Assembly (NCBI GenBank): GCA_965205955.1
Contig: OZ242192.1
Location: 2,128,658 to 2,192,657, forward strand
Length of the DNA stretch: 64,000 bases
From: Gammaproteobacteria bacterium
GTDB lineage: Bacteria > Pseudomonadota > Gammaproteobacteria > Eutrophobiales > Eutrophobiaceae
Reading direction: 5' to 3'
Part shown: one piece after another, positions 13,903 through 29,426 of the stretch
Numbering within the stretch: position 1 is the stretch's first letter
Layout of the letters: each line of letters starts with the position of its first letter
Notes under the pieces: model-generated
Told to the model about the DNA's origin: nothing
What the model saw: only the letters and a program-made list of their open reading frames with translations
Databases searched by the model: none
Program-made: the position numbers and the translations under genes

Positions 13903-15510
13903 TCAATCGCTACTCTCGAAAAAAGCCGATATTTGTTGATTATCCTCGGCAGAGCGATGCGCCCACAATAATCTGGTGCGGTAGCGCTCGCGTATATATT
14001 CATAAATATACCAACTGTTTATATACTTTTTGTCTTTCCTGGCTCTTCTCGGATGCAAGCGGGTCAGATAGATATAATTGACCTCGGGATGGCGCTCCAC
14101 ATAGAGTTCTCCGGCGGGACCTTTTTTAAAAGTGATTTCTCTGCAGATCCTATCGGCCAGCAAGACTATATAGGCCGGTTCAAAACACAGGATTACCGCA
14201 TCCGGGGCAGTGGTTTTCCGCATGCGTTGCATTTCCAGGATCATGGCCAATTTCGTTGCCGCTAATTGTCTCGCCTGCTCCAGGTCGTAGGTGTCATAAA
14301 ATTCCTTAATTTGATGATAACCCGATTCTTTTCCGGTCTGGTATCTGTTCCACGTGTAGGACAGCGCGGGTAGCACGGTGGTGAGTACCAGAAGCATCGC
14401 AATGGAAACCGCAACGCCGCCGCGCTTCAATTCCATTCTCCGAGCGCAAACATACAGGGAATAAAAACCATACATGATCAACAGGCATAGAATGGGATAG
14501 ATAAAACGCCCCATATGCCCCGGATAGGGCCACAGGAACAGCACAAGCAAATACAGCAAAACATAGATTGCGTCCAATTTTCCCTGTCCGACCCGAATGC
14601 ACAGACCCAGCAGGGAAAACAGGCCGGCAAGTAGAAGTATCGATTGGGCCGGGAGGGTCTGATCGGTCCAGTAATACAGCAGCCCGCCCAGCCAATTATC
14701 ATGGAAGGCCGCCAATTGCTCTTTTAGATCCCAACTGACCCTGATTTTTTCCGTCTCCGAACCGAGCAGGCCGCCGATTTGATCGATATACACCGAGGGA
14801 ACAACTGTGTTATGTGCCCACCAGGATGCCGCAATAACCGCCAATGAAAAAAATACCGGGATGACAAAATACGGCCCATCGAGACTGCCCCGTCTCCATT
14901 TTACGATGCAGATAACGATAAATGCCGCCAGCATTGCGACCCCGATCGTTCTTGTCAGCACTAGCAGGGCCAGCAGCAGGCCGAAAATGAATAGATTGGT
15001 TTTTCTGGAAAGATCGGCTTTATCAAAAAAAATCAACGTGGCCAGGCTGAGAAATAAATAAAGGGGTTCACTGAGGATCCCCATGGAATTCAGCCAGGCG
15101 GACGGGCTGAGGCAAAATATGAATACAATCAGCAGGGCCTGGTGATTTGCGGCAAACATACTGCGGGCAAAGATAAATATAAGAGGAATAGCCAGCAGTA
15201 AAAAAAGTGCGGTTAGCACGTGCGCCAGGGTGTAATCGTAGGCCGCACCCAGGATGGCCAGGATAAACGGGAAAAAGGGCGGAAAATCCTGACTTGGCCA
15301 GGCGGCAACAACCGCCGGACTGGCTTCATGCCAGGGGGATAAATAGCGCGCCATCAGCAAATAATTTACGCTATCACTAAAAAAGGATGCGAGTCCGGCG
15401 TGTGCGACAAAGGGAATGAGAAATGCCGCATAAATGCCGGCAAAGACAAACAGTGCCGCATAAGAGAGCAGATCGTTGCGGGAATGGGAAAAAATGAACG
15501 TACTGGCCAA
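13903..15510 (-). CDS. putative GT-C-fold (ArnT/PMT_2-like) polytopic membrane glycosyltransferase, paralog 1
   Basis: 535 aa with about 11 predicted TM helices. The first extracytoplasmic loop carries the conserved FFSDSVNYLLMARYLSPW (Asp-containing, ArnT/PMT-like). There is an LVLTRTIGVAML motif and a C-terminal soluble tail of about 130 aa with a unique sequence (...KDKKYINSWYIYEYIRERYRTRLLWAHRSAEDNQQISAFFESSD). TTG start with no SD. Confidence 0.7.
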   Translation of the reverse strand: MASTFIFSHSRNDLLSYAALFVFAGIYAAFLIPFVAHAGLASFFSDSVNYLLMARYLSPWHEASPAVVAAWPSQDFPPFFPFILAILGAAYDYTLAHVLTALFLLLAIPLIFIFARSMFAANHQALLIVFIFCLSPSAWLNSMGILSEPLYLFLSLATLIFFDKADLSRKTNLFIFGLLLALLVLTRTIGVAMLAAFIVICIVKWRRGSLDGPYFVIPVFFSLAVIAASWWAHNTVVPSVYIDQIGGLLGSETEKIRVSWDLKEQLAAFHDNWLGGLLYYWTDQTLPAQSILLLAGLFSLLGLCIRVGQGKLDAIYVLLYLLVLFLWPYPGHMGRFIYPILCLLIMYGFYSLYVCARRMELKRGGVAVSIAMLLVLTTVLPALSYTWNRYQTGKESGYHQIKEFYDTYDLEQARQLAATKLAMILEMQRMRKTTAPDAVILCFEPAYIVLLADRICREITFKKGPAGELYVERHPEVNYIYLTRLHPRRARKDKKYINSWYIYEYIRERYRTRLLWAHRSAEDNQQISAFFESSD

Positions 15511-15596
15511 GGGAAATTCGTATTTATATCCGGCTACTATGGCAATCTAGTTTACTCTGAAGACGCCGTATTTCAAAATGCAATGCAGAAATAAAC

Positions 15597-27844: not shown

Positions 27845-27854
27845 AGACAATGAA

Positions 27855-29426
27855 TCAATCCCTAATCTCGAAAAAAGCCGAAAATGGTTCGTTATTATCG
27901 GTGGAATGCACCCACAATACATTGGTAGGGCGGCGTATATCAATATTCAGGCCGTTCACCTCTTCATTTATCCACGGATGAATTTTAGTCAGATAGACAT
28001 AATCGACATCCCGGGCCGGCTGCATATATAGCTCTCCGGCAGAATTTTCCTCAATAGTGATTTCCCTGCCGACCCTGTCGGCCAGCAGTGCGATATAGGA
28101 CGGTTTAAAATACTGGATTACCGCATCCGGTTCCGTGGTTTTTTTCATGTGCGCCATATCCAGGAACATGGTCACCGGCATTGCCGCAGATTCTCTTGCC
28201 TGCTCCAGATCGTAGGTGTGATAAAAGTCCTTGATCCGATGATAGCCTGCTTCTTTTCCGGCCTGGTATCTGTTCCAGGTGTAGGACAGCGTGGGCAACA
28301 CGGCGGTAAGCGCCAGTACCATGGCAATGGAGACCGCGGCGTCACCACGCTTCAATTCCACTCTGTGGACGAGGGTGTACAGTGCATAAAAAGAATAGAG
28401 CAGCAATATGCACAGAACCGGATAGATAAACCGCCCCATGTGGGTCGTATAGGGCCAGATGAACAGCACAAGCAAATACAGAAAAACATAGATTGCATCC
28501 AATTTTCCCTGCGCGATGCGGAGGCACAGGCCCAGCAGGGAAAACAGGCCGACAAACATAATTATTGATTTGGCCATCACGGTCTGGACGCTCCAGTAAT
28601 ACAGCAGTCCGACCAGCCAGCCATGCTGAAAGCCCACCAATCGAAATTCTGTATGCCAGTCAATGTTGGCTTTGTACGCCTCCAAACCGAACATGTTGAC
28701 GATTGAAGTGATGTAATGAGAAGGAACAGCCGTACCCCAGAATGCTGCGATAAGCGTCAATGAAAAAAATACCGGAATAACAAAATAGGGCCAATCCAGA
28801 CTGCGCCGCCTCCATTTCAGGATGCAGAGAAGTATAAATGCCGCCAACATCGCGACCCCAATCGTTCTCGTGAGCACAAGCAGGGCCAGCAACAGGCCGA
28901 AGATGAATAGATTGATTTTCCTGGAAAGATCGGCTTTATCAAAAAAGATCAACGTGCCCAGGCTGAGGAATAGATAAAGATTTTCACTGAGGATGCCCAT
29001 GGAATTCAGCCAGGCGGACGGGCTGAGGCAAAATATGAATACAATCAGCAGGGCCTGGAGGTTTGTGGCAAACATACCGCGGGCAAGAATAAATATCAGC
29101 GGAATGGACAGCAGTAGAAAGAGAGCCGTTACTACATGCGCCAGGGTATAATCGTAGGCCGCACCCGAGATGGCCAGGATAAACGGGAAAAAGGGCGGAA
29201 AATTTTGTATTGACGAAGCAGCAACAACGGCCGGACTGGCTTCATGCCAAGGTGATAAATAGCGCGCCATAAGCAAATAATAGCTGCTGTCATTCCTAAA
29301 AGTCGAAAGTCCGTCATGCGCGACGAATGGAATGAGAAATGCCGCATAAATGCCGACAAAGACAAACAGTGCCGCATAAGAGAGCAGATCGTTGCGGGAA
29401 GGGGAAGAAATGAACGTACTGGCCAA
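27855..29426 (-). CDS. putative GT-C-fold membrane glycosyltransferase, paralog 9 (most divergent, next to GT2)
   Basis: 523 aa with the same TM architecture but many substitutions throughout (FRNDSSYYLLMARYLSPW; loop TAVPSHYITSIVNMFGLEAYKANIDWHTEF). It sits 38 nt downstream of the GT2 stop. Confidence 0.7.
   Translation of the reverse strand: MASTFISSPSRNDLLSYAALFVFVGIYAAFLIPFVAHDGLSTFRNDSSYYLLMARYLSPWHEASPAVVAASSIQNFPPFFPFILAISGAAYDYTLAHVVTALFLLLSIPLIFILARGMFATNLQALLIVFIFCLSPSAWLNSMGILSENLYLFLSLGTLIFFDKADLSRKINLFIFGLLLALLVLTRTIGVAMLAAFILLCILKWRRRSLDWPYFVIPVFFSLTLIAAFWGTAVPSHYITSIVNMFGLEAYKANIDWHTEFRLVGFQHGWLVGLLYYWSVQTVMAKSIIMFVGLFSLLGLCLRIAQGKLDAIYVFLYLLVLFIWPYTTHMGRFIYPVLCILLLYSFYALYTLVHRVELKRGDAAVSIAMVLALTAVLPTLSYTWNRYQAGKEAGYHRIKDFYHTYDLEQARESAAMPVTMFLDMAHMKKTTEPDAVIQYFKPSYIALLADRVGREITIEENSAGELYMQPARDVDYVYLTKIHPWINEEVNGLNIDIRRPTNVLWVHSTDNNEPFSAFFEIRD

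Follow-up and report, generated by a model that had tools for sequence, protein, structure and literature searches.

A mosaic tandem array of GT-C-type glycosyltransferase genes next to type IV pilin genes, reshuffled by recombination among its copies

Gene families that evolve in concert through gene conversion are known from several bacteria, among them Neisseria opa and pilE/pilS, Helicobacter babA/babB, and Borrelia vls. These systems shuffle a surface antigen, usually by bringing silent cassettes into one expression site, and they share short-tract nonreciprocal exchange, combinatorial mosaics, conserved blocks that supply the homology, discrete variable types, and differences in copy number or content between close strains. 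Herein, we describe a locus with the same features in a 64,000-nt stretch of a gammaproteobacterial genome (contig OZ242192.1, positions 2,128,658 to 2,192,657; hereafter the window). Positions 13903–29426 of the window hold nine intact open reading frames (ORFs) of 523–572 aa, head to tail on the minus strand, which form tandem paralogs 1–9 and are predicted to encode membrane glycosyltransferases of the GT-C type. Both marks of a recombining tandem multigene family are found here, namely recombination between paralogs and a change of copy number through unequal crossover. Unlike in the antigen systems, it is the decorating enzyme that is shuffled and not the decorated protein. A silent-cassette system of the pilS/vls type was considered and rejected, as the nine ORFs are full length and carry start codons and all invariant residues.

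With respect to the enzymes themselves, TfpW, which acts on the group IV pilins of Pseudomonas aeruginosa, is a GT-C pilin arabinosyltransferase encoded beside pilA and marked by a loop-1 DDX motif, by YX6PFX7P, and by TPRs in its C-terminal domain (10.1101/2020.04.19.049825). The array proteins resemble it in being of the GT-C type, with 11 predicted transmembrane (TM) helices, the N-terminus inside and a periplasmic C-terminal domain, in being encoded next to a major pilin gene, and, judging from gene context, in drawing a polyprenyl-phosphate pentose donor from linked genes. TfpW, however, occurs once, downstream of pilA and co-oriented with it, whereas the array is convergent with the pilin genes and comprises 5–9 copies. 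Membership of the TfpW group was rejected on three counts: loop 1 reads FFSDS or FASDS, with a single Asp (S-D46-S) and no DDX; the C-terminal 150 aa form a small alpha/beta domain without TPRs; and the array is convergent with pilA2, the position of TfpW being held by another TPR-GT-C in L008, the nearest relative beyond the close strains discussed below.

Other systems share the logic of the donor. In gtrABC O-antigen glucosylation and in lipid A modification by ArnC/ArnT, a cytoplasmic family 2 glycosyltransferase (GT2) loads undecaprenyl phosphate (Und-P) and a GT-C enzyme transfers the sugar in the periplasm, a division of labor that the gene content of the array locus suggests as well; in the gtr systems, the same donor scheme can serve several GtrC enzymes, each specific to a serotype. 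The locus differs from gtr and Arn in that its donor pathway involves a UDP-glucuronate decarboxylase (UXS), which points to UDP-xylose and not to glucose or Ara4N, and in that no GtrA or ArnE/F gene is present at the locus; of the partners that a gtrABC-type module places beside its GT-C (a GtrA-like flippase and a GtrB-like GT2), only the GT2 is found there, and the locus was on this account not assigned to the gtr modules. Moreover, a gtr module has one GtrC, whereas here nine recombining copies stand in tandem. Tandem GT-C paralogs that probably rely on one polyprenyl-phosphate pentose donor also recall the mycobacterial embCAB/Aft enzymes, where each paralog is believed to form its own linkage within a common polymer. 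Unlike the array, the Emb proteins are about 1100 aa long, have other C-terminal domains, and consist of three paralogs of old and clear divergence, for which neither mosaicism nor variation in copy number has been reported.

A preliminary description of the locus, drawn from the nucleotide sequence, had proposed that the copies are mosaics in which loop, TM, and tail variants assort independently, and the protein alignment reproduces each of the types that it listed. The mid loop occurs as type a in paralogs 1 and 2, as type b in 3, 4, and 8, as type c in 5, 6, and 7, and as type d in 9. The block of TM8 and the adjoining short loop falls into three types (1, 2, 3; 4, 7; and 5, 6, 8), whereas the tail is of one type in 2, 3, and 8, identical in 4 and 7, shared by 5 and 9, and unique in both 6 and 1. 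Paralog 8 indeed combines loop b with the TM block of 5/6 and the tail of 2/3; read in order, its 5' end equals paralog 4, followed by 504 nt of paralog 7, the loop of 3, the TM8 block of 5/6, and the tail of 2/3.

Recombination among the copies is statistically solid. The pairwise homoplasy index (PHI), calculated over 248 informative sites, is 0.269 against 0.446 +/- 0.008 in permuted data (z = -22.6, p <= 0.0005), and the departure persists when paralog 9 is left out (z = -19.1) and when the alternative N-terminus is likewise removed (z = -15.3). By the four-gamete criterion (Hudson-Kaplan Rm), no fewer than 45–62 recombination events must have occurred, and a GENECONV-like run-length permutation test finds significantly long concordant runs in 9 of the 36 pairs after Bonferroni correction. 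In approximately unbiased (AU) tests on maximum-likelihood trees of seven segments, each segment rejects most or all of the trees of the others, the tail segment (p <= 0.003) and the 5' segment rejecting all of them. Linkage disequilibrium (LD) among 19 copies from three strains decays from an r2 of 0.28 (<25 nt) to 0.09 (>400 nt; permutation p = 0.0005). In short, PHI, the segment phylogenies with their AU tests, the decay of LD, and the strain comparison given below all uphold the proposal that repeated unequal crossover and gene conversion made the copies mosaic. The one congruent tree across segments that the preliminary description had set against mosaicism was not found, neither by the AU tests nor in a sliding nearest-neighbor map, in which every copy switches partner several times along its length. 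Its picture of cassettes is nonetheless too coarse: the variants do assort as listed, but the breakpoints are far more numerous than three cassettes would have, and the tracts measure tens to hundreds of nucleotides.

The exchanged tracts can be read directly from the window. Nucleotide identity amounts to 87–96% among paralogs 1–8 and to 77–83% between paralog 9 and the rest, and exact tracts of up to 504 nt occur in copies that are otherwise about 91% identical. The longest, 25469–25972 in paralog 7 (24542..26173; this and all following paralogs on the minus strand), recurs at 27158–27661 in paralog 8 (26225..27844). The 3' end of paralog 7 (24570–24844) is identical over 275 nt to 19299–19573 in paralog 4 (19271..20884), which has the 5' end of paralog 8 and the tail of paralog 7. 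Paralog 6 (22872..24464) shares an exact 289-nt tract with paralog 4 and one of 273 nt (23472–23744) with paralog 5 (21483–21755). A further exact tract of 200 nt (20801–21000 = 27761–27960, minus strand) crosses a gene boundary, reaching from the 3' part of paralogs 5/9 through a 10-nt spacer into paralogs 4/8 at their 5' end; like the 504- and 275-nt tracts, it was checked in the raw window. Paralog 5 (20895..22475) is in turn 6-like, 3-like, again 6-like, and finally 9-like in its tail, and paralog 2 (15597..17207) is 96% identical overall to paralog 3 (17285..18895) while having the loop type of paralog 1. The array is bounded by paralog 9 (27855..29426), which follows the GT2 gene and diverges most from the other copies, and by paralog 1 (13903..15510), the last copy.

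Two metagenome-assembled contigs, L001 (718 kb) and L002 (2.63 Mb), have the same locus and neighbors, so that 21 copies from three strains can be compared (W for the window, A for L001, and B for L002); the long-range order of the copies rests on these three assemblies, which probably come from one study. In the purM–GT2 flank, L001 and L002 are 98.7% and 99.0% identical to the window at the nucleotide level, respectively, whereas the number of copies is nine in the window, seven in L002, and five in L001. In transcription order, the arrays read GT2-9.8-7-6=5.4=3-2-1 in the window, GT2-1.2=3.4-5-6-7 in L002, and GT2-1-2=3-4-5 in L001, where a point stands for a 10-nt spacer, a hyphen for a short one, and an equals sign for a long one. 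Orthologs are recognizable at the first position (W9 = B1, 98%), at one internal position (W5 = B3, 99%, with the same mosaic), and at the last position (W1 = A5, 98%, and B7, 97%). The interior copies are reshuffled between strains and the three spacer types follow in differing orders. Copy B2, for example, is a hybrid with a 4/8-type 5' end, then a W1-like and a W5/W6-like part, and a 3' end exactly as in W6, whose tail type it shares. Nine, seven, and five copies at a syntenic locus, with orthologous ends and a reshuffled interior, are direct evidence of unequal crossover, which has changed the copy number between close strains. Only one copy is found in L008, the next closest relative (57% identity), and in 16 genomes at greater distance, and the amplification is therefore recent and lineage-specific.

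The enzyme class was recognized through fold comparison only. An AlphaFold (AF2) model of paralog 3 (mean local confidence, pLDDT, 86.9; predicted TM-score, pTM, 0.90) matched GT-C enzymes in all 23 Foldseek hits against the PDB with E <= 0.001 (TM-score about 0.45–0.56), including ALG12/ALG9, STT3/PglB/AglB, ArnT, DPY19, and Pmt4. On the strength of this model, the array proteins are GT-C-fold membrane glycosyltransferases of a family unassigned in Pfam. Membership of the Pfam families PMT/PMT_2 (GT39/GT83, ArnT-like) was rejected, as PF02366 stayed below its gathering threshold in paralog 1 (E = 0.0015; 18.6 bits, threshold 22.7) and did not match paralog 9 at all. The sole NCBIfam match, to LA_3751/2, was weak (31 bits where 200 are required), and a profile search of the PDB sequences gave nothing. 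A profile of the family itself retrieved 692 representative clusters at E <= 1e-30, and the family is therefore widespread in metagenomes, even if undescribed.

The topology was derived from the model helices and the positive-inside rule, and variable positions were mapped by topology and not by surface exposure. It predicts 11 TM helices, a cytoplasmic N-terminus, and a periplasmic C-terminal domain, with 15 Lys/Arg residues within the six putative cytoplasmic segments. The predicted catalytic Asp, D46, would lie in periplasmic loop 1 (residues 36–92), in keeping with the conserved acidic residue that GT-C enzymes have in their first extracytoplasmic loop; it does not vary among 39 family members or among the 21 copies of the array. 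The mid loop of the preliminary description corresponds to EL4 (residues 234–282), a flexible predicted periplasmic loop (pLDDT 55–73). It is followed by a short predicted periplasmic loop, the WPxP loop (W327-P-x-P...R335), and by the predicted periplasmic C-terminal domain (residues 387–536), a small alpha/beta fold (pLDDT 83) for which a fold search of the PDB in isolation returned no significant relative.

Variation among paralogs 1–8 is concentrated at the gene ends and in the loops. The share of variable positions is 71% in the cytoplasmic N-terminus, 67% in the C-terminal domain (residues 436–536), 56% in the WPxP loop, and 29% in EL4, compared with 15% in the TM helices and only 4 of 98 positions in residues 115–212. 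The idea that the variable parts face the periplasm thus applies to the loop and the tail in the predicted topology but not to the TM8 part, which is membrane-embedded, varies conservatively, and hence would not face the acceptor; of what had been called the TM block, only the WP(Y/H)P... part is a predicted periplasmic loop. Within the C-terminal domain lies a hypervariable loop (residues 486–503; 17387..17440 in paralog 3, minus strand) with in-frame indels and a pLDDT below 50. Between HP(R/G)R and (I/V)NGL, it measures about 5 to 11 residues in the array, whereas its length is nearly fixed in single-copy relatives at 26–46% identity.

The near-invariant block, TM3–TM6 (residues 115–212; 18260..18553 in paralog 3, minus strand, with equivalent blocks in all copies), shows a proportion of synonymous differences (pS) of 0.01–0.03 compared with 0.25–0.30 at both gene ends. 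Because its pS is so low, its family-wide entropy ordinary, and its sequence nearly identical in all 19 copies of the three strains that are not of the W9 type, we conclude that this core has been homogenized by conversion. The earlier distinction between a conserved catalytic part and variable acceptor-facing parts hence survives as far as the core is indeed conserved, but homogenization accounts for this and not catalytic constraint alone. As a side observation, paralogs 1–8 each have three conserved homopolymer tracts (T7, T8, and T7 on the coding strand), all within the homogenized core and together within 14847–28763 (e.g., 15025, 16722, 18410, 20390, 21990, 23979, 25661, and 27350); paralog 9 has one of the three plus a different run. 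At several of the tracts, variants shorter by one base were seen in contigs of DNA runs X2 and X5, mostly at about 10–40% of the local depth, a pattern that phase variation and sequencing error would explain alike. Runs X1 and X3 showed no tract-length variants, and all 21 assembled copies are in frame.

Three conserved spacer types separate the genes, with lengths of 10 nt, 66–86 nt, and 375–411 nt, the last being 98–99% identical everywhere. In the window, the long spacers are 18896..19270 (375 nt) and 22476..22871 (396 nt, between paralogs 6 and 5), both read on the minus strand; they share 98% identity with each other and 98–99% with their counterparts in L001 (411 nt) and L002 (396 nt), each of which has just one such spacer. 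With these spacers as borders, the array may comprise three transcription units. A weak sigma-70-like match lies at the upstream end of each (19248–19220 and 22849–22821); in a scan for promoters and terminators, promoter-like sites were fewer than in shuffled sequences, and the terminator-like matches were repeated coding sequence. Each short spacer (15511–15596, 17208–17284, 24465–24541, and 26147–26224) has a relic of the last GT2 codons, ILKYG(A/V)FRL(D/N)* including the stop, and the same relic occurs in the short spacers of L001 and L002. The original duplication unit therefore began inside the 3' end of the GT2 gene. Paralogs 4 and 8 start with ATG 10 nt past the stop of the preceding copy (paralogs 5 and 9, respectively), and in L002 copies B5 and B6 an ATG is found four codons further upstream.

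Directly upstream of the array lie the genes that would supply its donor. The GT2 gene (29465..30169, minus strand) encodes a DPMS/ArnC/GtrB-like polyprenyl-phosphate glycosyltransferase of 234 aa without C-terminal TM helices, which matches dolichol-P-mannose synthase, ArnC, and GtrB-type enzymes. It is preceded by the UXS gene (30176..31126, minus strand; match to human UXS1, E = 3e-109) and, further upstream on the same strand, by suhB and purM. The linkage between the short-chain dehydrogenase/reductase (SDR) gene and the GT-C gene is kept in 13 other genomes. Such a context would fit the polyprenyl-phosphate-linked sugar donors on which GT-C enzymes draw. Elsewhere in the window, a 4667-aa ORF (48367–62370, plus strand) lies in a region of 58–65% G+C compared with about 49% in the remaining window; the product is probably a giant protein of the surface or adhesin type, encoded on DNA of foreign composition.

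On the other side, the array meets two type IVa pilin genes on the plus strand, pilA2 (13391..13852), which is convergent with paralog 1, and pilA1 (12465..13034), which is strongly divergent between strains. A pilin acceptor is suggested by the fact that in each strain the locus adjoins pilin genes (three in L001, two in L002 and in the window), by the divergence of PilA1 between strains, by a GT-C relic among the pilin genes of L001, and by the precedent of TfpW. The details of this flank are as follows. PilA1 (counterparts at 19557–19991 in L001 and 17524–17961 in L002) is 71–77% identical between strains at the amino acid level, compared with 96–97% for PilA2 and 99% for SuhB, UXS, and GT2, and of the two flanks of the array, the one with the pilin genes has 91–97% nucleotide identity and the opposite one about 99%. 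A degenerate GT-C 3' end is present between the pilin genes of L001 (20459–20722; tblastn E = 3e-19, 53% identity to residues 448–536). A candidate relic in the window (13107–13321, e.g., ...GAHRSAEN...) is marginal, being in two fragments with E about 1. In L008, a 621-aa multi-TM protein with C-terminal TPRs and a DD motif near its N-terminus is encoded directly downstream of two pilin genes (11684–13549, minus strand), and L023, a metagenome-assembled genome of Gallionella, has three tandem TPR-GT-C copies (about 8643–14737) beside a pilin gene, a GT2 gene, and a remote relative of the array genes. Pilin-linked GT-C genes may repeatedly undergo tandem amplification.

Taken as a whole, we think it quite probable that the locus is a mosaic, recombining GT-C array that provides a periplasmic repertoire. 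Homologous recombination of the RecA type between misaligned copies alters their number (nine, seven, or five in conspecific strains), and many short nonreciprocal exchanges, from tens to about 500 nt and also across gene boundaries, make each copy a mosaic. The middle of the gene (TM3 to TM6/7) is held nearly identical in all copies except paralog 9, and the gene ends represent a limited set of old, discrete types that are re-assorted, i.e., the N-terminus, EL4, the WPxP loop, and above all the C-terminal domain. All copies would be functional enzymes that use one common donor, a polyprenyl-phosphate pentose and probably Und-P-xylose, for which the neighboring UXS and GT2 would provide. The re-assorted periplasmic parts would then set acceptor or linkage specificity, and the array would serve as a recombining repertoire for surface decoration, most likely of the adjacent type IV pilins or their glycan, alternatively of lipopolysaccharide (LPS).

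The mosaics themselves could in principle have other origins. Misassignment of reads among copies that are about 90% identical could yield a chimeric consensus during assembly or polishing, and the genome is indeed a metagenome-derived single contig, while short-read contigs break throughout the array and neither confirm nor contradict its long-range order. Complete mosaics nevertheless recur between independent assemblies (W5 in B3, W9 in B1, and W1 in A5), which argues against such an artifact, and so do the intact ORFs of 21/21 copies in three separate assemblies and the contigs of run X1, which agree locally with the window, mostly without differences; we regard an artifact as highly improbable. 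Import of DNA from other strains, with allelic exchange as the main source of the mosaics instead of exchange within the chromosome, deserves more attention, yet we consider it unlikely. It would fit the occurrence of the same segment types at differing array positions in the three strains, the tail types of A1, A3, and B4 that are absent from the window, and the unusual divergence of the pilin flank noted above. The exact tracts of 200–504 nt within one chromosome, one of which duplicates a gene junction, speak for internal exchange instead, and a change of copy number requires misalignment within a chromosome or between sister chromosomes; both processes can coexist.

More serious is the question of whether the repertoire is selected at all. 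The preliminary description had favored selection for a repertoire over selection for dosage, and part of the evidence indirectly agrees. All 16 family-invariant residues are kept in 21/21 copies, the 12 distinct indel patterns are all multiples of three, and the ratio of nonsynonymous to synonymous differences (pN/pS) is 0.26–0.56 between orthologous copies of different strains. The tail types are discrete (pS about 0.29 between types) and each is conserved across strains (pN/pS 0.37 within type). A count in the manner of McDonald and Kreitman (MK) gives 101:31 replacement to silent changes between tail types compared with 20:17 within them (Fisher p = 0.012), and loop length is hypervariable in the array only. 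These tests are crude, given that recombination violates tree-based models, and a number of points weigh against the reading that we prefer. The MK-like counts are nonindependent. No window has a dN/dS convincingly above 1, and pN/pS values of 0.46 overall and 0.8–1.0 in the tail fit relaxed constraint too; a single small window in the sliding analysis exceeds 1 (residues 385–415), with very few changes, and positive selection is not claimed. Positions that vary among the paralogs tend to vary family-wide as well (mean entropy 2.26 vs 1.89). Seven of the nine copies can begin only at TTG (e.g., 15508–15510, 17205–17207, and 29424–29426), with no purine-rich ribosome-binding site upstream, and RNA-type runs show a clear signal in the region for pilA1 alone (depth about 32–36), with mere traces for the array. 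As to the acceptor and the donor, the single-copy gene of more distant relatives keeps its suhB–UXS neighbors but edges an O-antigen-type cluster (GT4, GT2, methyltransferases, and Wzt) and not pilins, a different, TfpW-like TPR-GT-C holds the pilin-adjacent position in both L008 and L023, and no small GtrA/ArnEF-like ORF that could be a flippase was seen between suhB and the pilins.

Neutral concerted evolution would accommodate several of these points. The array would then serve dosage or result from drift, gene conversion would homogenize wherever it chanced to act, the ends would be weakly constrained, and its redundant copies would form no selected repertoire. A pN/pS that is never clearly above 1, variable positions that are on average less constrained across the family, weak translation signals, a very low RNA signal, and a copy number that is dispensable within the range of 5 to 9 are all in line with it. 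It sits less easily with discrete tail types that strains have conserved, with indels that are all in frame and invariant residues kept throughout, and with a loop whose length is hypervariable in the array alone. Furthermore, selection for dosage would be expected to homogenize the whole repeat unit, the spacers being as homologous as the core. We judge the neutral explanation possible but rather doubtful, and we lean, with modest confidence, towards a selected repertoire as the more likely reading.

That tandem families evolve by gene conversion and unequal crossover, the mechanism proposed for the array, is textbook knowledge. A nine-copy array of complete GT-C genes, on the other hand, appears to be new, and a search of one paper library gave nothing on such arrays or on Und-P-xylose as a donor. 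Gene conversion among paralogs is the classic route to surface-antigen variation, whereas the shuffled units are here nine complete glycosyltransferase genes beside a fast-evolving major pilin gene. Our most specific proposal, a 'glyco-repertoire', is a tentative one: modules of the C-terminal loop, EL4, and the WPxP loop might, as determinants of acceptor or linkage, re-assort on a homogenized catalytic core, so that close strains would differ in their sets of pentosyltransferases and in their glycoforms of pilin or LPS, plausibly driven by phages specific to pili or LPS, and slippage in the T7–T8 tracts may tune the outcome. If this were true, antigenic variation would operate through the enzymes that modify the antigen instead of through the antigen itself. 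The locus also indicates a possible donor pathway based on polyprenyl-phosphate-xylose, and its natural chimeras offer themselves for tracing the choice of acceptor and linkage to particular parts of a GT-C enzyme. Provided that the shuffled periplasmic parts set specificity, the array would represent a natural case of GT-C module swapping and a new route to glycan diversity at the strain level, for example in the evasion of phages.

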